DNA of 64,000 nucleotides from a phage: the NCBI GenBank assembly GCA_020619395.1, contig GCA_020619395.1_4860.1. One strand, 5' to 3'. The notes beneath the pieces are model-generated. The model did not search any database. It saw nothing but the letters and a program-made list of their open reading frames with translations, and was not told the DNA's origin. The stretch's first letter is position 1, and each line of letters starts with the position of its first letter. The position numbers and the translations under genes were made by a program. Below are positions 25,328 through 63,358 of the stretch, one piece after another.

Positions 25328-25951
25328 ATGGCACAACTGTTGCCTAACACGCCTCAGGTTAACCTTGAGGGGTTGTTCAAGGTTAAGGCACCTTATACGT
25401 TGCCAGATAAAGTGATTTACCGTGTTGACGCGGTACAGAACTTTCCGAAACTCCAACGTAATAATATTGACGTTTATAACAAGTATTATAAACCTGTCGG
25501 CCTAACTCGTGACGACTATATCAGCGACGCTAATGTCGAAGCCTCGATTGTAACATTAAAGTCGAGGGACGGTCAAGTCTACGAGTTGCCTGATACGTAC
25601 ATTGAGACGTATCCTGGACTGAACGGGTTAAATTATAGACGCAATGTGGTGGTTATTGACCTGGCATTAATACCCGAATACGTCGATGTCACACTGCTAA
25701 CGAACGACCTGAAAAGCATCTTAGAACGCGGTTTAGGAATCGATGCACGTGTGGACATCACATCGATGGATTACGAAGGGACGGTGACGGAAGAAGAACA
25801 CTTGCAAATGGAAGCGGTGCGTAAAGCCAAAATCCGTGAGCAGGTTCCTCTGACAGAACAAGTTGCAACACTCACTAAGCAGAATCAAGAACTGCAGGCG
25901 TTGAATGATGCGATGTTGAAAATCCTGAAAGATAACGGGTTAACAAATTAA
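25328..25951 (+). CDS. hypothetical protein
   Basis: 207-aa ORF with SD-like aaggagg upstream; followed by strong terminator. Confidence 0.6.
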   Translation: MAQLLPNTPQVNLEGLFKVKAPYTLPDKVIYRVDAVQNFPKLQRNNIDVYNKYYKPVGLTRDDYISDANVEASIVTLKSRDGQVYELPDTYIETYPGLNGLNYRRNVVVIDLALIPEYVDVTLLTNDLKSILERGLGIDARVDITSMDYEGTVTEEEHLQMEAVRKAKIREQVPLTEQVATLTKQNQELQALNDAMLKILKDNGLTN

Positions 25952-25964
25952 AGAAAAAAAAGAA

Positions 25965-26005
25965 CTACCTACTCCCTTGGGAGTAGGTAGGCTTTTATTT
26001 TTTAT
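25965..26005. terminator. rho-independent terminator (CCTACTCCC/GGGAGTAGG family)
   Basis: GC stem plus T-run; A-run upstream allows bidirectional function. Confidence 0.65.
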
Positions 26006-26009
26006 CGCA

Positions 26010-27167
26010 TTACTTGCCGATAATTTCACGCATCATTGCTTTGATTGTGGCAGCAGTACGTTTCTTTTTCGGCTGCTTGCGGATTTCCGCGTACAGCTTA
26101 TCCAGGTTCAGAGTTTTCTGTACCTGTGCAGCGATATGCATTTGCTCTTCGTCGATTTTCACTTCGACGGTCTGCTCCTGCATCTTGCCCAGTTCCTGAA
26201 TAACGCTGGCAACCGATACCGGATATGCGGTTGATTTCGGACGCTCAATGCCGAGGGTGATGAAGATTTCATCATCGATGAACACGTTTTCGATATCAGC
26301 CAGGTTTTCCAGAATGATTTCATCGTGGTCTTCATCTTCCGACGCATTCGGGTATGGACGTTTGTAGGTGTAATCCCACACGTCATAACCGAGTTTATCT
26401 GCGAGTTGTACGAAACCTTCCCAGGTTACTTCGCCGGGGTTGATAGTCTGGCCACGGAAACCGGGGTTGGCCGTAAAGACTTTCACCCAGTCGATGTTCG
26501 CGATGTTACGACACTCTTCCAGCGGCGCGTAACGATCTCCCACTTCGTCATTGTCAGTCTCTTCAACATGCTCTGCTTCACAACGCTCGAAAGTAACTGA
26601 GTGTGGTTTACCGTCGCCGAAGATAACGGAGGCAGCACGCCAGTCTTCGATAGTCCACTGGACATGAGTCAATTCAATGTAACAATGCCCAACCTTAGCA
26701 CGGCCTTGTGGGGCACTTACTGGTTTAATCAACTCACCTGGTTCGAAGAAGAATCCGTCAGAATGTGCAATGGCATACCAGACACCATCAACACCTTCAA
26801 CGAGAATAGACCAGTTATAAGGCGCGTGGCAATTTTGGAAAGCTACGCCCAGCATACTTCCCCAACGGTCATCTGGCGAATATTTCAGCGGCGGCAGGTT
26901 ATCAAACTGAAGAGTTTGAGAAGAAAGGCACAACTTATTACGCAGGTGCGGCAGCGGCAGATAAGCCTCCACATTGTTATCGACCAGCGCATTGTAAAGA
27001 TCCGGGTTGATAACACCGGTGCCAGTGACGTGTTGTGCAATCAGAGCTTCTGAATATGCACGAATACCCTCGTAGCTAAGCACATACGCACGGTCACGTA
27101 CTACACGAGCCATATCTTCGATTACGGAAATTGGAAATTGCATGTTAATAGTCCTTATAAAAGTCAA
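26010..27167 (-). CDS. hypothetical protein
   Basis: 385-aa ORF. Confidence 0.55.
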   Translation of the reverse strand: MTFIRTINMQFPISVIEDMARVVRDRAYVLSYEGIRAYSEALIAQHVTGTGVINPDLYNALVDNNVEAYLPLPHLRNKLCLSSQTLQFDNLPPLKYSPDDRWGSMLGVAFQNCHAPYNWSILVEGVDGVWYAIAHSDGFFFEPGELIKPVSAPQGRAKVGHCYIELTHVQWTIEDWRAASVIFGDGKPHSVTFERCEAEHVEETDNDEVGDRYAPLEECRNIANIDWVKVFTANPGFRGQTINPGEVTWEGFVQLADKLGYDVWDYTYKRPYPNASEDEDHDEIILENLADIENVFIDDEIFITLGIERPKSTAYPVSVASVIQELGKMQEQTVEVKIDEEQMHIAAQVQKTLNLDKLYAEIRKQPKKKRTAATIKAMMREIIGK

Positions 27168-27203
27168 TGGTATTTTCAGATGATTAGTTACTGCTGTAAA
27201 AAA

Positions 27204-27470
27204 CTAGTTACGGTCGGAATTAAAGACGTGCCAGGTACTCCGCCAGCGAAAGAATCGGGTTATGAAACCACGTATGTGGTAGCCTGAGAACAACATCCAG
27301 ATGGTAAGAAAGAGTTGCGCCCATGGAGACGTGAGTTCCATCAGATGCGCGACAATCGCACCGATCACCAACATTACCGTAGAGAATAACAAACTATACA
27401 TCATCGGAATGTTGTGGCTATAGCGTTTCTCCATCCAGTAGAGAATATTTATTAAACGTTTCACGAACAC
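27204..27470 (-). CDS. small membrane protein (2 predicted TM helices; holin-like candidate)
   Basis: 88 aa with two hydrophobic stretches and basic C-terminus. Confidence 0.4.
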   Translation of the reverse strand: MFVKRLINILYWMEKRYSHNIPMMYSLLFSTVMLVIGAIVAHLMELTSPWAQLFLTIWMLFSGYHIRGFITRFFRWRSTWHVFNSDRN

Positions 27471-27479
27471 ACACCCAAG

Positions 27480-27517
27480 AATTAAATAAAAGGTGGTCAG
27501 ACCCGAAGGTCTGACCG
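27480..27517 (-). terminator. rho-independent terminator
   Basis: stem ggtcagacc/ggtctgacc with cgaa loop, T-run on minus. Confidence 0.6.
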
Positions 27518-27521
27518 TTAA

Positions 27522-28115
27522 TTACGCTTCGGCCTCAAAGAACGGCTGGTTCGGTACCACTGCATATTCGAGCACGAAAAGATGTTCTGGGGCATCTTCT
27601 GCTCGCCACAGTTTGTGGCACGTTGCCAGTTTTTCCAGGATGGTCAACCAGCTGAGCTGGCAGAAAGCACGATCGCCGAAGAACAGTTTCTGCAGTGCAA
27701 TCGACACATCCATATACGCCTGTTTGAAGTCGAGTTCTTTATCGTAACCCGCCGACTGTCGCCACGTCAGCACGAAGCCTGCTTCGGTTTCGTTAATTGC
27801 TGGACGTAAACCACAAATCCACATCAGCGCCAGATTAACGTTCCAGTCGAATTCGATACCTTCGTCTTCGTCATCACCAAACGCCGCGTTTAACGCGTCG
27901 TAGAAACCGTGGTTCTCTGCGAACCATTCGCCGTACTCAACGTAGACAGGTGCTTCGACAGCTTCCCCATCGGCTTCACCGATAGGACGCTCAACGTAGT
28001 TCGGATTGGTTTGAACGTGTTCCGCACCCGCGCGAATCAGTTCGTAAACGTCTTTGGCGGTGATTTGTGCGGCTGTTTTAAGACCTGGATACCAGGGGCG
28101 TGTTACGAGTGTCAA
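27522..28115 (-). CDS. hypothetical protein
   Basis: 197-aa ORF. Confidence 0.5.
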   Translation of the reverse strand: MTLVTRPWYPGLKTAAQITAKDVYELIRAGAEHVQTNPNYVERPIGEADGEAVEAPVYVEYGEWFAENHGFYDALNAAFGDDEDEGIEFDWNVNLALMWICGLRPAINETEAGFVLTWRQSAGYDKELDFKQAYMDVSIALQKLFFGDRAFCQLSWLTILEKLATCHKLWRAEDAPEHLFVLEYAVVPNQPFFEAEA

Positions 28116-28834
28116 AGCAATGCTCCTTTCATGATAGTGTTATTTGCCAGTAATGTACCGGCCGCAGGTGATATTTTGGTGTACAGCGTATCCCAGATTT
28201 TCTGAAGTTCGGCGACGCGTTGGTCGTGGTCTTCCTTCGCAAAAGCAAGCTGACGTGTTTCAGCTTTCGGTGGTGTCATTTTCGCACCGTAGAATGCTGC
28301 GTCTTTTCGGTAGCTGGCCATCCAGCGTTTCCCGACCGGTGATTTCTTTTTAATCATCGCAACAGCAGCACCCTCACCGAAGCGGTAGCCTAAAGCGATT
28401 TCGGCTGTGCTCGGCTTGCGTTTGAGTTGTTTTGTCAGATGATCCTCGATGTGTTTCATGTAAACGGCAGCAAGCTGTACAGCATATTTCGGTTTATTAA
28501 GGTCCGCATTCTTTGGGATGTTAAGTTGTTTCCCATACAGACGTATCATGGAGCGTTTAGTGCCTGTCGTCATTTGGACAACACTACTAGCACTGCTCGT
28601 TTTATTCTTACCCACGTTTTTATTAAAACGGGATTCACGATAAATGGTGGTCGCGAGCATCCCGGCATGTACGCCTTGTTTTCGAGATGCGGTGACGATG
28701 AGAGGTTTAATCTCATTGAACTGGTCCTGGATAAGGACGAATTCTTTTTGGTGTTTGTTACTGGTGGTCTGGTAAGAAGCGTTGCTGTTGAACGTAGTCA
28801 TTGCTACCAGAAGAAATAAAATGGTGCGAAACAT
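28112..28834 (-). CDS. secreted protein, possible SLT-like lytic transglycosylase
   Basis: N-terminal signal peptide (MFRTILFLLVAMTTFNSNA); YRESRFN...SSVVQMTTGT loosely fits the SLT catalytic E-S...Q motif. Confidence 0.4.
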   Translation of the reverse strand: MFRTILFLLVAMTTFNSNASYQTTSNKHQKEFVLIQDQFNEIKPLIVTASRKQGVHAGMLATTIYRESRFNKNVGKNKTSSASSVVQMTTGTKRSMIRLYGKQLNIPKNADLNKPKYAVQLAAVYMKHIEDHLTKQLKRKPSTAEIALGYRFGEGAAVAMIKKKSPVGKRWMASYRKDAAFYGAKMTPPKAETRQLAFAKEDHDQRVAELQKIWDTLYTKISPAAGTLLANNTIMKGALL

Positions 28835-28924
28835 GGATGTATCTCCAAACGGATTTATACTTTTCCGTTCCCAATCCGGGAAGACGGCGCGGACGGCATT
28901 GTGCTCCTTTGTAATGTGCCCTGA

Positions 28925-28940
28925 TGATAATATCTATTTG
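28925..28940. promoter_or_regulatory. palindromic motif TGATAATATCTATTTG
   Basis: GATAATATC palindrome core in intergenic region upstream of 28834. Confidence 0.35.
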
Positions 28941-29434
28941 AAACTATTTGGGATGATTTTCTCTGCTTCCCTCAGCAGGGTGTCCGGTAAATAGAATCGA
29001 TAAGTCTGCTCCGTGTGCTGTAGTCGTTTCTGTAAGTGTATAAAGATTTCCAATCGCTCATGGTAACGTAACCAACCGTTAGCCATCCCTAGGGGCGGTA
29101 TCGCAATCCCTCCTTCTAAGTCTTCCCCTAGTCGCGCCAGCGCATCAATGCCGGACGTGACATAGTAAATCTGCGATTTATAGCGAAAATGGGTTTTAGT
29201 AGGAAGGAGTATTACCCCTTCCTCAGGATAACAATAGACCTCACCGATAACGATTTGCTCTTTACGGCATTTCTGGCGATAGTCATTATAAAGCGATGGG
29301 AAGCGTTCTCGGCACGCCAAGGCAATGCCCCTTCCCATTGCACCAACGCAGTTAACTGTAACGACCTTGAAGCGCTCAGGCGCGTTAAACAAGTCGTGGG
29401 AGATAACGGCCTCGTCGATCAGTTCGAGTGACAT
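28934..29434 (-). CDS. macro-domain protein (OARD1/TARG1-like ADP-ribose processing; candidate anti-defence)
   Basis: VNCVGAMGRGIALACRERFP matches the macro-domain G-x-G-I-A signature. Confidence 0.45.
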   Translation of the reverse strand: MSLELIDEAVISHDLFNAPERFKVVTVNCVGAMGRGIALACRERFPSLYNDYRQKCRKEQIVIGEVYCYPEEGVILLPTKTHFRYKSQIYYVTSGIDALARLGEDLEGGIAIPPLGMANGWLRYHERLEIFIHLQKRLQHTEQTYRFYLPDTLLREAEKIIPNSFK

Positions 29435-29633
29435 CTATTGCCATACCCCATTGTGAAATAACCGGAGACTGAAGCAACGATTCCAGCTCAGTAAGAACTC
29501 TGGCTTTTGCTTCTTCGCGCAACTTACGGACTTCCGGGTCAGGTTTGACTGCGCCCAAATATTGGGGTTCTGTTTGTGGGGTAGGGAAGCCACAGAAAGA
29601 ACCAACCGTTATTCCGATGATTGTTTTTTGCAT
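29385..29633 (-). CDS. hypothetical small protein
   Basis: 82-aa ORF; 50-nt overlap with downstream gene, start uncertain. Confidence 0.35.
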   Translation of the reverse strand: MQKTIIGITVGSFCGFPTPQTEPQYLGAVKPDPEVRKLREEAKARVLTELESLLQSPVISQWGMAIDVTRTDRRGRYLPRLV

Positions 29634-30056
29634 TTAGCTATTCCTTTTCACCCAGGCTTGTACCGCTGACTCGAAACCTTCGTGTTCGATACCGAGTCGT
29701 TTCATTGCCAACATAGTGTTGAGGCTATTCGTAATTTCTTCACGGTAGCGATGGTCGTCCATCTTACGCCAACACTTCTCCGGGTCAACACCTAAGCATT
29801 GGAGTAGATACGCCTCACGCACCATACCAGGCCGCCAGAATTTAGGGCGGGTAATCGCGATTTCAATCATGGGCGTCATGTCCAATGTGTGCGCGAGAAT
29901 ACTAACCGGCGTTTCCCCAACTTTATCACGTAGCGCTAAACGTAACCACCACTGAACATTTGCTTTGGTTTCAGGCAACAGGTCGTAGAATAAGGCTGTT
30001 TCTTCTTCTGATAAATGATCGTATAGTGATTTTGTTTCGCGAATAGCGGTAACCAT
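29634..30056 (-). CDS. hypothetical protein
   Basis: 140-aa ORF. Confidence 0.5.
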   Translation of the reverse strand: MVTAIRETKSLYDHLSEEETALFYDLLPETKANVQWWLRLALRDKVGETPVSILAHTLDMTPMIEIAITRPKFWRPGMVREAYLLQCLGVDPEKCWRKMDDHRYREEITNSLNTMLAMKRLGIEHEGFESAVQAWVKRNS

Positions 30057-30067
30057 TTTAATGCTCC

Positions 30068-30331
30068 TTAGGGTAAAGTTGCCTCCCAGTCGTGGTGGTG
30101 AGGCTCAGGCAGCGTACCAAGCGCTGCTTTAATACACGTACTCAGCGGAGTATCATCGAACGCAACACGCCCGATAGTACCCACGTTGATGTGTTTAGGA
30201 TTTACGGGTAAGAACTCCTTCACCCGCTCGTACTCAGCCCAACAGACATCGGTGTTTAAAGCTGAAAACCCAGGACGGTGAAACATAAATAGCACTCCTC
30301 GCGTAAAAATACCCCACTCATAGTGAGGCAT
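30068..30331 (-). CDS. hypothetical protein
   Basis: 87-aa ORF. Confidence 0.4.
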   Translation of the reverse strand: MPHYEWGIFTRGVLFMFHRPGFSALNTDVCWAEYERVKEFLPVNPKHINVGTIGRVAFDDTPLSTCIKAALGTLPEPHHHDWEATLP

Positions 30332-30356
30332 AATCGTAAGGAGTGCTAAAACAGGA

Positions 30357-30872
30357 CTATGCTACCGCAGTCCTTAAAGGTTCATCTGCTTCCGCAAGAA
30401 CCTGCTTCTTAAATTCAAGCCATTGTCCGTCTGTAGAGACGGTCTTGTCAAAACCGCGAGCGGTAAAGAACGCAATACCAGCTTCCTGGCAAGCGTATAT
30501 TCCCCCATGCGCACTGGTGAACTGTTCATTCACATCAAGCGCATCAAAAATCTGCGTCATCGTTTTACGACGGCGTGCCATTTCGGACACGAACATCGTA
30601 CGAATCTTCAGAACCCCAGCGATTACGCGATACAAACAGTAACCAACAGGGGTGCCCCCTTCCAGAGCAACACAAGCACGGTTCCCCGCCAACAGTTTCT
30701 CCAGAGTGAGGTTCGGAATCTCACCTTTTTCGATATGGAGTATGGTACGTTGGTGGTTCAGAAATTTATAATGCAGCCCCAACAGCTGTTTATTTTGTGC
30801 TTCCGTTAAATCTGAGGATGAGGAAAGAATGACAATTTCGGCCATGAGCTGAATTCCTAAGTGAGCTTTCAC
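30357..30872 (-). CDS. hypothetical protein
   Basis: 171-aa ORF; weak GNAT-like C-terminal pattern not convincing. Confidence 0.5.
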   Translation of the reverse strand: MKAHLGIQLMAEIVILSSSSDLTEAQNKQLLGLHYKFLNHQRTILHIEKGEIPNLTLEKLLAGNRACVALEGGTPVGYCLYRVIAGVLKIRTMFVSEMARRRKTMTQIFDALDVNEQFTSAHGGIYACQEAGIAFFTARGFDKTVSTDGQWLEFKKQVLAEADEPLRTAVA

Positions 30873-30991
30873 CTGCGATGAAAGCGAGTAACGAAGAATT
30901 GCGTTTGTGTTTTCTTAAGTTTACCGGTAAAGCTTAGCGGTGTATACCGCCAGAGGTGAAGACCAGTTCTCTATCGGAACCGTGTCTTTAA

Positions 30992-31270
30992 TCAGCAACG
31001 ACGTTGAAAACGTCGCGATGCTGAGGTAACCTTCCGTCGCCACATTCGCTCATGGCGCTTCTGATTACCACGCCAGTCTTCCCCGACTGTACGTGAAACT
31101 GCAAAATCATCCGGCCCGCAGACTTCCGCGATGTCTGCTAGAAGGTTCTTTGAAGACCCTATAGCCATCCCCGCGCTCGAAAGAACGATACGCCGGGTTG
31201 GCTCGGCCGCCCCTGAACCCACGACCACGGGATCAGAGACTGTTTCACTGTTACATGATACTTCTCCCAC
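30992..31270 (-). CDS. hypothetical protein
   Basis: 92-aa ORF. Confidence 0.4.
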   Translation of the reverse strand: MGEVSCNSETVSDPVVVGSGAAEPTRRIVLSSAGMAIGSSKNLLADIAEVCGPDDFAVSRTVGEDWRGNQKRHERMWRRKVTSASRRFQRRC

Positions 31271-31498
31271 TTCGTAAATGTCCTCCTGTTAAAACCAACC
31301 TTGCGTCAATGCAAGGATTGCGCCTAGGGCGTATGCGCCCGCTCCTAGTATCAGGCTACAGACGATACACCCAACCCATTTCACTAAAATAACCATGATG
31401 CCAGAAATGCTCCGATTGCACAGATGATAATCGTAATGCCAAGGTCTGTCCAGGTGGCACCATCATACGCACCTGTTGCAATCATGGCTGCGTTGACA

Positions 31499-31747
31499 CT
31501 ATTCACGACTGTCATAAGCCGGGTCCCTTAAACGCGGGGGCTTGCTCCACAGATTACCGAAGTAAACCCCTTCTAAGAACACCAAAACAACTAAGCCCCA
31601 AAAGGCAGGCGTAGCGCGAGACATGAAAATACCGAGTAGCACCACAGTGTGCATTACCACAACTGCCCAAAACTTTAAACGACCAGGTTTACGTCTTGCC
31701 ATGGAATGCCCATCCTTTCGTGCGGATAATCCAACCCCAGGCACCAC
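31499..31747 (-). CDS. small membrane protein
   Basis: 82-aa ORF (likely start at internal MARRKPG...) with two hydrophobic helices. Confidence 0.45.
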   Translation of the reverse strand: MVPGVGLSARKDGHSMARRKPGRLKFWAVVVMHTVVLLGIFMSRATPAFWGLVVLVFLEGVYFGNLWSKPPRLRDPAYDSRE

Positions 31748-31789
31748 GAATCAACCACAGTGCAATACCGGTTAATACGATACCTTCAA

Positions 31790-31981
31790 TCATGTCCGTT
31801 CCCCTATATCTCGCCACTCACAACGCGTGTCGAACAGACGTTCTTTAAGAGCAGCAGCTAAATAAACGACCGCAGCGATAACCACTACGGTTGCACAAAA
31901 GGAGAGGTACAGTACCATCACAACAAACTGAAGGAACTGAAAACCCCACCAAGCCCATAAGCGCCAACCTTTATGATGCAT
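31790..31981 (-). CDS. small membrane protein
   Basis: 63-aa ORF, Trp-rich N-terminus and TM helix. Confidence 0.4.
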   Translation of the reverse strand: MHHKGWRLWAWWGFQFLQFVVMVLYLSFCATVVVIAAVVYLAAALKERLFDTRCEWRDIGERT

Positions 31982-34481
31982 ATTTGATTATTACCCCTTC
32001 GTTATAAACCGGTGGAAGCGTTACACCTTCTGGCTCCACGACACAGTAGGTGGCTTCGTTAAGTTTAGAATGAACTTCCGCTTCATGCGAAACGACCAGC
32101 AATTGAGAAAACTCTCCCGACAACGCCAACGATTTAATGAAGTTGACCAGTCGATTTTTGTGTTCTTCATCCATGCCTTCAGAGGGTTCATCCAATAACA
32201 AAGGATAGTTTTGTAAACCAAGCGCTTTATACGCCGTTAAACGAAACATCATGTTAAAGATAATACGCTGTGCCTTCGAACCTTTCTTCACATCCGGCAC
32301 CAGTTCTTCATGGTCTTTTAATCGCACCGGGAAAGTATAATCCAAATCCCCGTCGGTTAGATCGCATGGAATAACCTGCATCGGATATGCCCACACCATT
32401 TCGATATACCGATTCATTAAATCCATGATGCGGGTAATCGCAGCATAAAAGTAACGACGCAATAATCCTTTTTCGGGTGAGACGGCATTGATAATCAATC
32501 TGGCATGATGGTGTTCTTTGAGCAACTCAGCTTGCTCTTTTTCCAATTCCGCTAAACGTGCAATAGCCCCTTCCATTTGACGAAACCGTTCACGAGCGGA
32601 AGTGTACGCATCGAGCTTCGCTTCGCGTCGGTTTAACAACTCGCGAACCACGACGTTGTTAACGGAGATGTTCATTTCCGATACCAGATGTTCGTAGCCT
32701 TTTTGGAAACGTTCGATTGCTTCTTTGGTTTGTTGCAGTTGGGTGGTTTCGCGTTCCAGCTCATTGGCTTGTCTGCGGTATTCTATCAGTCGACGGTTAG
32801 CCCCGTCCAGTTGTGAACGGATATGTTCAATTTTCTGGCTCAGCGCACCATCAACGTTACCTACTGCGGCAACAGCCTCTTGCCATTCCCGTTCCGCTGT
32901 TGCAAGCTTCGCCGATTGACGCAGATACATCATGGCCGAATCTAGCTCTTCAGTAAAGGCACGTGCAATGGCACCATAACGATCCCGCGCCGTGGTGAAG
33001 ATATCCAGCTCCTGCAGTTTACGGAAAAACAAACCGACAACAGGATGGTTGGAATACGACATGACGATTTCGCGAATCGTACGTAAGCTACGGACGTCCT
33101 CTTCAATCTCTTTGCGGTCACGCAAAAGACTATCCATTTCGTCTTTCAGCTGCTTCTTCCAACCTTCATTATCGTTGATGGCCTTTTCAATTTCAGGTAA
33201 CGACTTACGAATCCCAGGACGGAAACGGTGGTTACACTGTGGACAATCAACTTCTGCAGTTTCTAAGAAGTGTTGACGGTCGTGGTATAAACCGTGTAGC
33301 ACATTCTCACAACGTTGCAGCTTTTCAGATAGACCCGCAGAGGTTAAATCCATACCCTGTAAACGCTTCTCTAACGCTCCCAGGCGATCTGTTGTCTTTA
33401 ACTGGTCCAGATGCATGGACAACGGTAAATTCCAGTTACAGGCATCGTTTAACGCGTTCTGAATGCTATCCACATCAATGCGGGTACCTTCAAACAGAGC
33501 CGGGAACATCCAGTTCTGTTGGAACGTTGCCAGTTCCTGTTTTAAGCTGTCGATTGTTTGTTTTAGACCGGTATGGTTGCGCATCAGATACGCTTGACGC
33601 GACTCCTCATCCAGTAGCTGTGACAACTCTTTATTGTACATGTTGCATTCAGTTTCAGCAGAGGCAGCTTGCTCACGCCAGGCAACTACACGACTTTGAA
33701 ACTCGTTAATCAGTTCGTCAGAAGGCAGAACACCATAACGTTCCATAATGAGTTTTACAGCCGGTTGCAACGAAGCAATGCGTTTCCGGATACTATCAAC
33801 CGAAACGGCGTTATCTAAACCGGGTCTCGCTTCAATGGTACGGTTTAGTTCCTGAAGCTCAGCATCGAGTTCTTTCAAACGAACTTCTAAACGTGCACGA
33901 TCTTCTTCATCATCAACGACGCGCATTTTTGCTTCGCCGATTTTTCGTCCGGTGTGCTCAATGGCCCCACTTAAACTGGAAGCGAGTTTACGCAAACGTC
34001 GATAGCAACCAACAACGTACGTCAGATCAGATTCTGACATTAACGTAAACCATTTACGACGAACTTCGGTAGTGGCGTCAGTTAATAAGGTCTCACCATT
34101 AATTAACTCTTTGATTTCTTTGGTGATTCCGGTTAATTGCTCCACCATGGAGTTGTAAACTTTGGCGTTTACCGAGTCTACGATGGAGACACCTTTAGTG
34201 ATATTGAAAATACTACAAGACAAAGAAGAGCCACGACGCAGGACTTCAAACTTAAGACGGTCGTCCCCAACTAACGCGTAGTTAGTGTAGGAACCACCTT
34301 CACGGAATTCTGATTTTGCTGGAGCTAAGGGGAGAAAAACAGATAGGAGGCTTGTTTTACCGCAGCCGTTGCCACCGAGGATGATGGTAACGGTTGACTT
34401 AAGGGTGAAATCAAACGTTTCGATTTCATGTAACCCCATGCCGGTAAATCCTTTCAAAATGATACGTTCGACCTTGAGCAT
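31971..34481 (-). CDS. SbcC/Rad50-like recombination ATPase
   Basis: N-terminal Walker A GGNGCGKTS, long coiled-coil, central CPQC zinc-hook-like motif, C-terminal signature/Walker B LLLDEPSEGMD...VVSHE. Confidence 0.75.
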   Translation of the reverse strand: MLKVERIILKGFTGMGLHEIETFDFTLKSTVTIILGGNGCGKTSLLSVFLPLAPAKSEFREGGSYTNYALVGDDRLKFEVLRRGSSLSCSIFNITKGVSIVDSVNAKVYNSMVEQLTGITKEIKELINGETLLTDATTEVRRKWFTLMSESDLTYVVGCYRRLRKLASSLSGAIEHTGRKIGEAKMRVVDDEEDRARLEVRLKELDAELQELNRTIEARPGLDNAVSVDSIRKRIASLQPAVKLIMERYGVLPSDELINEFQSRVVAWREQAASAETECNMYNKELSQLLDEESRQAYLMRNHTGLKQTIDSLKQELATFQQNWMFPALFEGTRIDVDSIQNALNDACNWNLPLSMHLDQLKTTDRLGALEKRLQGMDLTSAGLSEKLQRCENVLHGLYHDRQHFLETAEVDCPQCNHRFRPGIRKSLPEIEKAINDNEGWKKQLKDEMDSLLRDRKEIEEDVRSLRTIREIVMSYSNHPVVGLFFRKLQELDIFTTARDRYGAIARAFTEELDSAMMYLRQSAKLATAEREWQEAVAAVGNVDGALSQKIEHIRSQLDGANRRLIEYRRQANELERETTQLQQTKEAIERFQKGYEHLVSEMNISVNNVVVRELLNRREAKLDAYTSARERFRQMEGAIARLAELEKEQAELLKEHHHARLIINAVSPEKGLLRRYFYAAITRIMDLMNRYIEMVWAYPMQVIPCDLTDGDLDYTFPVRLKDHEELVPDVKKGSKAQRIIFNMMFRLTAYKALGLQNYPLLLDEPSEGMDEEHKNRLVNFIKSLALSGEFSQLLVVSHEAEVHSKLNEATYCVVEPEGVTLPPVYNEGVIIKYAS

Positions 34482-34529
34482 GTTTGCCTTCTAATGAGAA
34501 AGTATTAGTCGTTCATATCCAAAAGGTCA

Positions 34530-34567
34530 TGCGTAAAAAAGAAGAAATGGAACCCCGAAGGGTTCCA
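34530..34567 (-). terminator. rho-independent terminator
   Basis: stem ggaaccc/gggttcc with cgaa loop, T-run on minus. Confidence 0.55.
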
Positions 34568-34577
34568 GAGAGGAGAG

Positions 34578-35204
34578 TTATTGCGGAATAAACTTACGGT
34601 GTCCGAGTGATTCCCAAAAACTATCGGTGCGCTCTTTGGTTAATTCGTACCACGCACGTCCGGCATCAGAATCGACAACCTTTAACGTTTCAGTAAGCAG
34701 GAATTTGAACAGTTCTGCGCTACGACCCGGTGCCACGCCGTCGAGATATATCGGGATTAAATAACCGGTTTTGATTTCTTCGTACGGTTGCGATTGGTGC
34801 TGGCCAACAACCCAGGCATCAGCAGCGCTACCGACCAAAGTGGTGTTTACAGTCAACTCATCAGAAATCCAGTTAACTGTATCAGCCATTATTGAATCGC
34901 CATTGACGTAGAAGAAAACTAAACGTTTAGGTTGCTCCACCGAACCAGCCAAATCTAATGCAGTGGTTCCGGTAAAGATCGTATTGTTAGGGTTACGTTC
35001 CGCAATAGGTAGAGCAAACCACGCTTCTAGCTGTTCCCAGCTACGCGGCAGTGCTTCTTTAAACCACTTCACCAATCGCGGGTATTCCAGAAACCCTTCT
35101 ACCTCTTCTTCCATCAGATTGATACGCAGTTTGGTATCCTGACGATTCGCTTTCTGACACGTCACCATGTCGTCGATGAAACGAATCAGGGTAATCTCGT
35201 TCAT
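34578..35204 (-). CDS. hypothetical protein
   Basis: 208-aa ORF; lacks Mre11/SbcD phosphoesterase motifs. Confidence 0.5.
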   Translation of the reverse strand: MNEITLIRFIDDMVTCQKANRQDTKLRINLMEEEVEGFLEYPRLVKWFKEALPRSWEQLEAWFALPIAERNPNNTIFTGTTALDLAGSVEQPKRLVFFYVNGDSIMADTVNWISDELTVNTTLVGSAADAWVVGQHQSQPYEEIKTGYLIPIYLDGVAPGRSAELFKFLLTETLKVVDSDAGRAWYELTKERTDSFWESLGHRKFIPQ

Positions 35205-60212: not shown

Positions 60213-61100
60213 ATGAAAAACGATTTGCATCTTGCGTATAAAACCACATTCAACCACCCGCTGCATCTATCTTCCCCAGATTCAGTGCGTGCGCACCTTG
60301 CTGACAAAGTCAGACTGATTGCACAGATTCCTGGTGAGTGGCCAAAGGTTCGTGGTCGCTTCTTGACCGACAAGAAGAACTACACCGTAGAAAATACGTT
60401 TAAGATCCGTGATATGGTTGCAGAGGCCATCGTTATCTTTAACGGCGATGGTAACTCTCGTGGCGTGTTAGTCGACGGTAAGTATTTCTTCAGTGAAGGG
60501 ATTTTGAACAACAGCGTCGATTTAGAACTGATGTTTACACCGTTTGACGAACTTGAAGCAAAACCGATGGCGCGCCGTTGGTGGAGTCCGGACTATCTGG
60601 GCTCGTTCCCTTACTACTTTGTACTGGTACCTGCCGATACGGAAACGTATTTCGACACCGAACCGTACATCGATATCGAGGGATATAAAGAACTCGGCAT
60701 CACCCGTTTAGCGGACATGATGGCGTATAGCTATAAGTTCGTGTGGGATAAAAAGCGTTCTGTCTGGTATGCGTTGACTGACGATTTTGAAATCACCAAA
60801 CGTATTCGTAAGCCGTGGATGCAACACCTGGTTCAAACCCGATATGGGGATTACCCGGCGACAGAAGCGGATTTGAGTAAGCTGGTAAGCTTCCTCTTAA
60901 CGAAGGTGGATTTAACGAAAGAAGAAGCAGAAGCTGTTTCTGAGATTCGTAGTCGTTCGGTAACGTTGGCCGATTTGAAACGCTTGAACGAAAGACACGC
61001 CGACCTGAACAAAATTTTAGCTGCCTATCACGACCCGATGTTACTGGTGCCTGGCGCTAATGTAGACGAAGATCCTTTATTCGCCATTGATTATATTTAA
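60213..61100 (+). CDS. hypothetical protein (cluster-associated, unknown function)
   Basis: 295-aa ORF with SD ggag, lying between precursor peptides and radical-SAM genes. Confidence 0.6.
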   Translation: MKNDLHLAYKTTFNHPLHLSSPDSVRAHLADKVRLIAQIPGEWPKVRGRFLTDKKNYTVENTFKIRDMVAEAIVIFNGDGNSRGVLVDGKYFFSEGILNNSVDLELMFTPFDELEAKPMARRWWSPDYLGSFPYYFVLVPADTETYFDTEPYIDIEGYKELGITRLADMMAYSYKFVWDKKRSVWYALTDDFEITKRIRKPWMQHLVQTRYGDYPATEADLSKLVSFLLTKVDLTKEEAEAVSEIRSRSVTLADLKRLNERHADLNKILAAYHDPMLLVPGANVDEDPLFAIDYI

Positions 61101-61122
61101 AAATATACTGGAGCAACCTGCA

Positions 61123-62037
61123 ATGACAGATCAAGTAGAATCCAGGATCTCGTCTGAACTGTACGACAAACCGTCAATTCTGTCGGTTGTCGCAACTTCT
61201 AAGTGTAACTTAGACTGTAGCTTCTGTGGAGGGGCTTATTACATGGATAGAGAAGATACTTCTCGTGAGTTTCAACGCGAAGAGATTCTCTCGATTTTAG
61301 AGAAGAATCCGGATATCGGTGAGATTCATTGGACGGGCGGTGAGCCGCTGTTAGCGCAGCGTAAGATTGAAGACTTCGTGAACGAGTTGAAGGAGTCTCA
61401 TCCGAACCTCCGTCATCACATGTACACCAACGGTTTAAAGATGCGTAAATCACATCTGCCGTTGCTGAAACAGTTCGACCTTATCTTTGTGTCCATTGAC
61501 GGCTACAAGAAGTCGGAACGTCCGTTTATGAACTTTGTAAACGGTGGTAATCACGAAGCGCTGGAAGTGCTGTACGAGCTGGACAACTATTACACCTGGG
61601 GTGTGATGACGCGTGACCAGTTAGGTGATAAACGCTGGTACGAAGATTTCATCGAGCTGCACCGAGCAATCTATCATTACCGTCCAGGTGGTGTGTCGTT
61701 GTTGTTTGATGCGATGATGCCGAAACCGTTATCGCCAGACCACGTCATGAACTTCATGTACGGGTATTGGAAAATACTCGACAATATCGAACGCCTTAAC
61801 ATGCAGAACGATTCTGAATGTGGGCTCGCGATCAGTAAAATGTTCGATACCGAGTGCAACACGTGCAGTGAAGTGCTGTGGCTTAACGCCGACGGTACGC
61901 AGGAGCAAATTCAGAACGCCCCAGAGATATTGGAAGTCGGCTGTAATCGCCTGGCGCGTTCTATCGGCGTTGATGCGTATAACTACATCAACCGTGTAAT
62001 TTCTGCTAAGCGTAAACGGGCGGCGAACAATGAGTAA
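61123..62037 (+). CDS. radical SAM enzyme (peptide-maturase-like)
   Basis: CNLDCSFC (CxxxCxxC) near N-terminus, GGEPLL SAM-binding motif, C-terminal extra Cys (ECG...CNTC...GC); ATG 61123 with SD tggag. Confidence 0.8.
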   Translation: MTDQVESRISSELYDKPSILSVVATSKCNLDCSFCGGAYYMDREDTSREFQREEILSILEKNPDIGEIHWTGGEPLLAQRKIEDFVNELKESHPNLRHHMYTNGLKMRKSHLPLLKQFDLIFVSIDGYKKSERPFMNFVNGGNHEALEVLYELDNYYTWGVMTRDQLGDKRWYEDFIELHRAIYHYRPGGVSLLFDAMMPKPLSPDHVMNFMYGYWKILDNIERLNMQNDSECGLAISKMFDTECNTCSEVLWLNADGTQEQIQNAPEILEVGCNRLARSIGVDAYNYINRVISAKRKRAANNE

Positions 62038-63358
62038 TAGCGAACAGCAAATCCAGTACACACCACGCACGTATCAGGTTGTGACTAACCTGTCATGTAA
62101 CCTGGACTGCGAATACTGCTACGAGCGTAAATATCCGCGTAACAACAAAGTAGCAGACGTGATTGATTTTATCCACGCTTGTTTCGAGCGCGATAAAGAT
62201 ATCCCGAACGTTGAAGTCATCATCGATATCATCGGTGGTGAGCCGTTCATGCAGCCTAAACTTCTTTTGGCGGCCTTTGAAACCGCAGAGAAGTTATGCG
62301 CAGAACACAATCGCCCGTATATGTTCAGTATCTCCACGAACGGTACGCTTCTGGACCGTCCGCTGAACAAAGAAATTATCGAGCGCTGGAAAGACAAACT
62401 GTCTATTGGGGTCTCCATCGATGGTTTACCTGAAGTCCATGACAAATATCGTATCTTTACCACGACGCGTGAAGGGTCGTACGAAGCTGCGGTACGCGGT
62501 TACAATTATCTGAAGAGTGTTGGCATCGCTGAACTGGGCGTAAAAGCGACGTTTACGATCGATACATTGCCGCACTATGCCGCCAGCATGAAATCGTTAA
62601 TTGACATGTCCGGCGGTGGTACCATTTCTGGTAATGTAACGTACGAAGATATCCTGCCGCGCCATATGGCGTTGGATATCGCGAACCAGATGATGGACGT
62701 GATGGACTACTGGATTGAGAAGGGTCTGCACACCAACCCGCGTAACACGATTACACACATCATCCCGGATGGCCTGAACTTTATGGCAACTTGGGACCCG
62801 GATTGGCGTGACAAACTCTTACACGACGACTCTGTTCGTCTCGACCCAGAACGCCTGAAACCGTACTGCGGTACGTTGACGCACATGACCTGTCTCGGCT
62901 TTGATCGCAAGATTTACGGTTGTAACCGTTTCATGTCCACGGTAACTTCCCGCTCTGCTGTAGCGGAACTGGTCGGTCGTGAGTTTGTGAGTCTGGACGG
63001 TGGTAAGCTGTTAGAAGAGATTCAAACGCAGTACACCAACTACCCAGAAACCTGTTTAGGGTGTCCGATGAAACACAGCTGCGGTAGCTGCGCAGCGGCA
63101 TCGTACGAAAACGGTGAAGGTACACTGGAAGACCGTAAAGCGTATCACGCCGAGCGTCGTCAGTGTGGTTGGACTACTGCGAAGCTGATGGCGGCGGAAT
63201 ATTGGTATCAGAAAACTGGTACGACTCGCGCATCAGATTTGCACGATAAATCCATGTGCTATTGTTCACGTTGTGTACGCCAACGTGCCGAAGCAGAAAA
63301 ATTACAAAACGGAGCCCAGAATGAAGTCAATACTGATTCACAATTTTACGAAGCGTAA
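62030..63358 (+). CDS. radical SAM/SPASM-domain enzyme (anSME/sactisynthase-like)
   Basis: CNLDCEYC (CxxxCxxC), GGEPF, C-terminal SPASM-type cluster CLGCPMKHSCGSC plus further Cys; start overlaps upstream stop (ATGAGTAATAG). Confidence 0.85.
   Translation: MSNSEQQIQYTPRTYQVVTNLSCNLDCEYCYERKYPRNNKVADVIDFIHACFERDKDIPNVEVIIDIIGGEPFMQPKLLLAAFETAEKLCAEHNRPYMFSISTNGTLLDRPLNKEIIERWKDKLSIGVSIDGLPEVHDKYRIFTTTREGSYEAAVRGYNYLKSVGIAELGVKATFTIDTLPHYAASMKSLIDMSGGGTISGNVTYEDILPRHMALDIANQMMDVMDYWIEKGLHTNPRNTITHIIPDGLNFMATWDPDWRDKLLHDDSVRLDPERLKPYCGTLTHMTCLGFDRKIYGCNRFMSTVTSRSAVAELVGREFVSLDGGKLLEEIQTQYTNYPETCLGCPMKHSCGSCAAASYENGEGTLEDRKAYHAERRQCGWTTAKLMAAEYWYQKTGTTRASDLHDKSMCYCSRCVRQRAEAEKLQNGAQNEVNTDSQFYEA

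Follow-up and report, generated by a model that had tools for sequence, protein, structure and literature searches.

A predicted AdfM-type macrodomain directed against DarTG2 in a Seoulvirus jumbo phage

The window, a stretch of 64,000 nucleotides of phage DNA, encodes a single-domain macrodomain protein of 166 amino acids whose nearest kin are the macrodomains of bacterial DarG antitoxins. Identity and gene order assign it to AdfM ("anti-DarT factor macro"), a phage family described by Morgan et al. (Cell Rep 2026, PMC13309987). It has the conserved catalytic residues of this family, lies in a syntenic region and has no partner toxin beside it. We consider that the protein is most probably an orphan DarG2-like macrodomain that would de-ADP-ribosylate phage DNA and thereby counteract DarTG2. 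As the anti-DarTG2 role of the family has already been published (2026), what is new here is one more orthologue, from another genus, with an activity attributed by analogy.

The macrodomain gene, its source phage and its AdfM relatives

In the ORF listing of the window, the macrodomain ORF has an ATG start and its limits include the stop codon; the sequence-only reading had given exactly the same coordinates. The gene and the two upstream neighbours discussed below are as follows.

28934..29434, minus strand: macrodomain CDS, 166 aa; single-domain DarG2-type macrodomain and Seoulvirus orthologue of AdfM, based on profile, PDB and Foldseek matches and on identity to AdfMs
29385..29633, minus strand: upstream 82-aa ORF that shares 50 nt, in a different frame, with the start of the macrodomain gene; annotated in SPLA3 and MET_P1_082_240
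30357-30872, minus strand: GNAT acetyltransferase, 0.9 kb upstream of the macrodomain gene and in the same orientation

The macrodomain ORF is real and not a chance reading frame, as indicated by its matches to DarG, PHROG and PDB entries, by the 78 homologues found in a large protein collection, and by its location within a long run of minus-strand genes that is kept in about 40 related phage genomes. The 5 kb surrounding the gene share, from end to end, 97-99% identity with about 30 jumbo phages of ~240 kb, including SPFM, SPLA, SEGD1 and JN03, for which Salmonella, Escherichia and Proteus are named as hosts. With the Seoulvirus phages SPFM and SPLA, the window shares 99% identity. The related phage records consulted are classified in the genus Seoulvirus, placed by NCBI taxonomy in Chimalliviridae. 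Split genes for a multi-subunit RNA polymerase are found in the window and in the related SPLA3 genome, which contains many RNA polymerase beta-subunit pieces, and split beta-subunit genes are typical of Chimalliviridae. Together these comparisons identify the source of the window as an SPN3US-like jumbo phage of the genus Seoulvirus and the family Chimalliviridae, hence a nucleus-forming phiKZ-like phage. A plasmid origin was rejected upon a megablast search of PLSDB that gave no match. Scanning positions 28000-31500 for promoters and terminators returned weak sigma-70-like matches only, which tell nothing about phages that transcribe their genes with RNA polymerases of their own.

The macrodomain protein shares 70% identity with gp217 of Erwinia phage Asesino in a gap-free alignment covering 166/166 residues. 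The order of genes is also shared with Asesino (SbcC-like, GNAT, small ORFs, macrodomain, SLT endolysin and further genes), and the GNAT neighbour is 62% identical to its Asesino counterpart. Identity to PhiKZ gp104 is 35% (E 3e-25), and the macrodomain gene is the only significant match of gp104 within the window. Using the macrodomain protein as a tblastn query, a single place was found in KTN4, a genome of the PhiKZ species, and this place is the gp104 orthologue (99% identical to gp104); the reverse search with gp104 found one place per Seoulvirus genome among the matches listed. In either direction, each genome among the listed records thus has a single matching place. Because of the gap-free 70% identity to Asesino gp217 and the same gene order, the protein can be assigned as an orthologue within the described and experimentally characterised AdfM family.

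The named members of this family are PhiKZ gp104, PhiPA3 gp108, Goslar gp83 and Asesino gp217, and the DarG2-like macrodomain represented by gp104 is present in about half of chimalliviruses (PMC13309987). PhiKZ AdfM takes off the ADP-ribose that DarT2 attaches to a TNTC oligonucleotide and relieves the toxicity of DarT2, its deletion mutants lose 3-6 logs of titre on DarTG2-expressing hosts, and the titre of a PhiPA3 AdfM mutant also falls on such hosts (PMC13309987). The phage nucleus is where the AdfM proteins of Asesino, PhiKZ and PhiPA3 are found; enzymatic activity was demonstrated for PhiKZ AdfM only, Asesino gp217 having been assayed for localisation (PMC13309987). The window protein resembles these AdfMs in being a chimallivirus-encoded, single-domain DarG2-like macrodomain in the range of ~160-185 aa, with no partner toxin and with the catalytic Asn and Lys kept, but differs from them in coming from Seoulvirus, another genus, with Salmonella and E. 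coli hosts.

Fold and active site

The strongest profile matches of the protein are to DarG, both in PADLOC (E 4.3e-32, positions 7-147 of 329) and in NCBIfam (antitoxin_DarG, NF048014; E 1e-30, positions 7-150 of 338, with a score of 107.2 versus an equivalog cutoff of 250), together with PHROG 335 (E 1.3e-29), which is labelled "phosphatase". The match to Pfam Macro (PF01661) is borderline, at 21.7 bits for a gathering score of 22.0 (E 2.1e-4, profile positions 2-105 of 118), and a precomputed PF01661 match exists for several homologues that are 63% identical to the protein. A phmmer search of PDB sequences placed first the DarG macrodomains of M. tuberculosis (5m3i, E 1.9e-20) and Thermus aquaticus (5m31/5m3e, E 8.7e-19), followed by the Thermosipho DarTG fusion 7omu. 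Structures of the Appr-1''-p phosphatase Poa1p were marginal in this search (E 0.05-0.13 over 39 residues), and TARG1 gave no match.

An AlphaFold2 model built on 56 homologues (pLDDT 93.8, pTM 0.90) predicts a three-layer alpha/beta/alpha macrodomain fold of the Macro superfamily. Foldseek comparison of this model with the PDB gave 187 matches at E <= 0.001; the best 50 of these 187 are macrodomains, bar a few entries that are hypothetical proteins or hydrolases designed on related scaffolds. The first match is Thermus DarG 5m3e (E 2.6e-13, TM 0.76/0.83, rmsd 2.2 A), followed by 5m31, M. tuberculosis DarG 5m3i and Thermosipho DarTG 7omu, the DarG matches ranging from 2.6e-13 to 9.3e-12, and then by TARG1 (4j5q, 3.2e-7); viral nsP3 macrodomains stand at ~5e-7 and Poa1p (6lfr) occupies rank 30 with 16% identity. 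The nearest kin of the protein are thus the bacterial DarG antitoxin macrodomains, which are closer to it than TARG1 or any other macrodomain class.

TARG1 (OARD1; PDB 4J5Q, 4J5S) is the human terminal ADP-ribose glycohydrolase, which removes ADP-ribose linked to Glu/Asp of proteins. TARG1 and the window protein fall into one macrodomain subclass and have equivalently placed catalytic lysines, but they share only 16% identity over the structural alignment. When GLDRL of TARG1 is aligned with GWLRY, its Asp125 presumably has no counterpart in the window protein, R123 standing at that position, which provides a lead. DarG itself is structurally most similar to TARG1 (Jankevicius et al. 2016, PMC5179494). 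The sequence-only reading had proposed a macrodomain protein of the OARD1/TARG1 type. The macrodomain part is borne out by the model, by Foldseek and by the DarG profiles, with the Pfam score at the border, and DarG chains head both the PDB sequence search and the fold search. The class holds at the level of the subclass, within which DarG, and not TARG1, provides the precise nearest relatives.

We aligned the protein with the DarG proteins of Thermus and M. tuberculosis, PhiKZ gp104, Goslar gp83, 201phi2-1 gp167 and Asesino gp217, and counted conservation over 56 homologues with identity down to 28%. The active-site features located by this alignment are the following.

29321..29356, minus strand: residues 27-38, first ADP-ribose-binding loop, VNCVGAMGRGIA, with the pattern N-x-x-G-x-M-G-x-G; includes N28 (DarG/AdfM alignment)
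29195..29197, minus strand: codon of K80, within the PTK motif; corresponds to the catalytic Lys80 in Thermus DarG and to Lys84 in TARG1 (alignment)
29075..29098, minus strand: residues 113-120, second Gly-rich (diphosphate-binding) loop PPLGMANG, followed directly by W121 (alignment)

The first loop is the motif that the sequence-only reading had singled out as characteristic of these macrodomains, and the conserved Gly-rich loop that it expected on alignment is present, with G31, G34 and G36 of loop 1 and G116 and G120 of loop 2 invariant. T26, N28, M33, T79 and K80 are likewise found in 56/56 homologues. N28 aligns with N22 of Thermus DarG and N23 of PhiKZ AdfM, K80 aligns with K80 of both Thermus and M. 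tuberculosis DarG, and T26, T79, G116, N119 and G120 align with the ADP-ribose-contacting residues T20, T79, G117, N120 and G121 of the Thermus protein. In Thermus DarG, the K80A mutant is inactive, N22A is the next most damaging mutation, and loop 117-122 closes over ADP-ribose (PMC5179494); the N23A mutation reduces the activity of PhiKZ AdfM (PMC13309987).

The window protein departs from DarG at three positions of the pocket. F83 replaces the thymine-stacking Trp83 that is present in DarG and PhiKZ AdfM, a position at which W83A has little effect on Thermus DarG (PMC5179494). A118 occupies the position of Thermus G119, where G119E cripples the enzyme (PMC5179494), and PhiKZ AdfM, which is active, also has Ala there. 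W121 stands at the position of Thermus G122, in the loop that closes on ADP-ribose, where DarG and PhiKZ AdfM have Gly; of the 56 homologues, 37 have W and 15 have G at this position. The C-terminal tail also differs from those of PhiKZ AdfM and DarG. These sequence differences suggest that W121 and F83 could alter the substrate preference of the Seoulvirus/Erskinevirus clade. Given the bulky W121 in the closing loop and the Phe in place of the thymine-stacking Trp83, this branch might erase another ADP-ribose mark, for instance on another base, on RNA, or as the adduct of an undescribed enterobacterial ART defence. A branch with specificity retuned away from the DarT2 thymidine adduct, perhaps acting together with the overlapping small ORF, nonetheless seems improbable to us.

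Orphan status and predicted role against DarTG2

DarG (DarTG2; PDB 5M31, 5M3E, 5M3I, 7OMU) and the window protein share the macrodomain fold and the active site, including the equivalents of N22 and K80, but differ in overall organisation. DarG carries a C-terminal DarT-binding domain and belongs to a bacterial toxin-antitoxin locus, whereas the window protein lacks this domain and is encoded by a phage gene without an adjacent darT (DUF4433 ADP-ribosyltransferase). The lack of the C-terminal domain is deduced from the length of 166 aa, which covers the N-terminal half of the DarG models only, and from the score of 107 against a cutoff of 250. A Pfam scan of the 10 flanking ORFs (25328-35204) found no DarT or ART domain, the domains present being SLT, GNAT, SMC/AAA (SbcC-like ATPase) and DUF7194 only. 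A partner toxin or phage ART was also sought in the annotation of the whole SPLA3 genome and none was found, a negative of little weight given that the majority of SPLA3 genes carry the label hypothetical. Since DarG coverage is half and the 10 neighbouring ORFs lack a DarT/ART domain, the protein can be classed as an orphan antitoxin-like enzyme and not as part of a toxin-antitoxin module, nor in that sense as a DarG antitoxin. This organisation is compatible with function, as the isolated DarG macrodomain suffices as an antitoxin (PMC5179494).

The DarT2 toxin of DarTG2 ADP-ribosylates thymidines in TNTC motifs of single-stranded DNA (PMC11825919, PMC5179494). By analogy with the published homologues, in a host carrying DarTG2 the toxin would modify such thymidines in single-stranded phage DNA, and the pocket of the macrodomain, lined by loops N28-G36 and G116-G120, would take up the ADP-ribose. 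Lys80 would hydrolyse the thymidine-ribose bond while Asn28 would position the substrate, and the unmodified DNA restored in this way would support replication and packaging. The protein would probably be imported into the phage nucleus, where phage DNA sits. Nuclear localisation is not readable from its sequence because import by PicA depends on surface residues of the folded protein and is for the most part restricted to the cognate phage (PMC13309987). De-ADP-ribosylation of DNA, nuclear import and protection against DarTG2 are thus expected of the window protein from what has been published on its homologues. Weighing against this role are the low identity (35%) to the PhiKZ protein, whose activity was the one assayed, and the W121 and F83 substitutions. 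The sequence-only reading had suggested reversal of DarT-type ADP-ribosylation, and this is supported by the activity of the PhiKZ homologue gp104 (PMC13309987) and by the 70% identity to Asesino gp217. Its broader wording of the substrate, "proteins or nucleic acids", can be narrowed: single-stranded DNA bearing ADP-ribosyl-thymidine, and not a modified protein, is what the enzyme would be expected to act on.

Other phage factors already provide precedents for this type of counter-defence. AdfN, an orphan antitoxin directed against DarTG1, is likewise a stand-alone phage copy of an antitoxin eraser activity that neutralises DarT, but it is a NADAR protein of unrelated fold and acts on the guanine-ADPr made by DarT1 (Johannesman et al. 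2025, PMC11825919). AdfA and AdfB are also phage-carried inhibitors that neutralise DarT; both are small proteins that bind DarT and lack an enzymatic fold (PMC11825919).

An alternative interpretation is that the protein erases a different ADP-ribosylation, on protein Glu/Asp, on RNA (such as the product of defence toxins that ADP-ribosylate mRNA) or on DNA/RNA ends, with the mark coming from other defences of the host or from ADP-ribosyltransferases of the phage itself, and that DarT2 is not its main target. TARG1, a protein de-ADP-ribosylase, is indeed the next structural class after DarG, the clade-specific W121 and F83 are placed at the end of the pocket that receives the substrate, and it has been suggested that some phage ADP-ribosylglycohydrolases may detoxify further DNA/RNA ADP-ribosylating defences (Johannesman et al., PMC11825919). 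We nevertheless find this interpretation unlikely given that the DarG matches are far stronger than those to TARG1 in both searches (about 1e-20 versus none by sequence, 2.6e-13 versus 3.2e-7 by Foldseek), and that the orthologous family acts on DarT2-modified DNA (PMC13309987). The lack of an ART in the SPLA3 annotation and in the 10 neighbouring ORFs points the same way, weakly, most SPLA3 genes being annotated as hypothetical.

Less likely still is a small-molecule hydrolase, either an Appr-1''-phosphate phosphatase or an O-acetyl-ADP-ribose deacetylase, that would dispose of by-products of RNA repair or of immune signals derived from ADPr. The "phosphatase" label of PHROG 335 and the Appr-1-p labels of many phage records would fit such an enzyme but constitute inherited annotation, and Poa1p is marginal by sequence and stands far down the fold search, while the catalytic Lys of DarG/TARG1 type is kept in the PTK motif. 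Macro domains of jumbo phages have also been proposed to degrade soluble ADPr signals or toxins (Iyer et al. 2021, PMC7824862). Finally, a non-catalytic ADP-ribose binder (reader or sponge), or a decayed enzyme with another role, might be suspected from W121, from A118 near the Thermus G119 whose mutation to Glu cripples DarG (PMC5179494), and from the Pfam Macro score just under threshold, but is very unlikely as the residues important for catalysis are all kept, N28, T79 and K80 being invariant in 56 homologues, and as the active PhiKZ AdfM likewise has Ala at the G119 position.

If the protein acts against DarTG2 as proposed, the gene would predict resistance of Seoulvirus to DarTG2-carrying hosts, by analogy with the characterised AdfMs. 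Seoulvirus phages are studied for Salmonella biocontrol. More generally, phage-borne orphan antitoxin enzymes indicate that jumbo-phage DNA is incompletely shielded from host defences by the protein shell of the nucleus, a point already made for this family with AdfM in 2026. The gene also already bears a macrodomain label in some GenBank records; that the inference of the sequence-only reading, made without such records, was correct is nonetheless worth noting.

Related proteins, database records and neighbouring genes

PhiKZ AdfM shares 41-42% identity with macro proteins of phiEco32-like podophages (~77 kb), compared to 35% with the Seoulvirus protein. Because these podophage proteins are the more similar to PhiKZ gp104, the macro family is not confined to nucleus-forming phages, and DarG-type orphan macrodomains are spread well beyond chimalliviruses. 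PhiKZ AdfM also matches Streptomyces phage records, where the matching feature bears the annotation "ADP-ribosyltransferase".

GenBank labels of the same gene vary between "hypothetical protein", "phosphatase" and "protein-ADP-ribosylation protein", with "macro domain-containing protein" in JN03. Three macro proteins that are identical or 63-64% identical (P0001, P0014 and P0016) were deposited as "hypothetical protein [Salmonella enterica ...]", on contigs of up to 226 kb (P0016). Such entries probably represent genomes of jumbo phages that were assembled together with those of bacterial isolates.

Several SPFM phage proteins (P0037, P0038 and others) resemble shortened or scrambled forms of the macrodomain protein; their reading as pseudogenised copies was considered and rejected in favour of a database artefact. 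In the ENA record LR535912.1 (Salmonella phage SPFM14), the region 63149-69409, which corresponds to about positions 26000-32000 of the window, consists of consecutive 60-nt blocks that are reverse-complemented in place; a k-mer map shows that the order of blocks is kept and that 59/105 segments are exactly 60 nt. The resulting proteins, with 20-aa blocks in reverse order (P0037, P0038, P0042, P0043, P0047, P0050 and P0052), come from several ENA SPFM records, namely SPFM1, 8, 20, 6, 12, 14 and 15/5. This in-place block reversal is an artefact of data processing and does not reflect gene decay.

The 82-aa ORF that overlaps the macrodomain gene has no Pfam match. An unannotated 99-aa ORF of Asesino (L006 11457-11756, plus strand) shows the same 50-nt overlap and 44% identity to it (E 2e-15), a similarity that is partly forced by the overlap itself. 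The 82-aa ORF is possibly a real small gene and may be translationally coupled to the macrodomain gene.

In the Serratia phage Moabite, also a chimallivirus, a GNAT gene (L011 2032-2523) abuts and overlaps the macro gene. A conserved GNAT-macro pair was however rejected, as the GNATs of the window and of Moabite have no pairwise similarity (E 3.8). Because the two GNATs are dissimilar we do not claim a functional link, and the proximity of GNAT and macro genes may be coincidental. SPLA3 has at least three other acetyltransferase genes.

Two further loci of the window deserve mention. The 207-aa protein encoded at 25328-25951 (plus strand), beside a virion structural gene, gives an end-to-end match (E 2.5e-71) to Pfam DUF7194, a conserved family of unknown function. 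The adjacent and overlapping ORFs at 61087-62037 and 62030-63358 (both plus strand; 316 and 442 aa) correspond to the SPLA3 genes for "radical SAM domain-containing protein", a pair that is unusual as jumbo-phage cargo.
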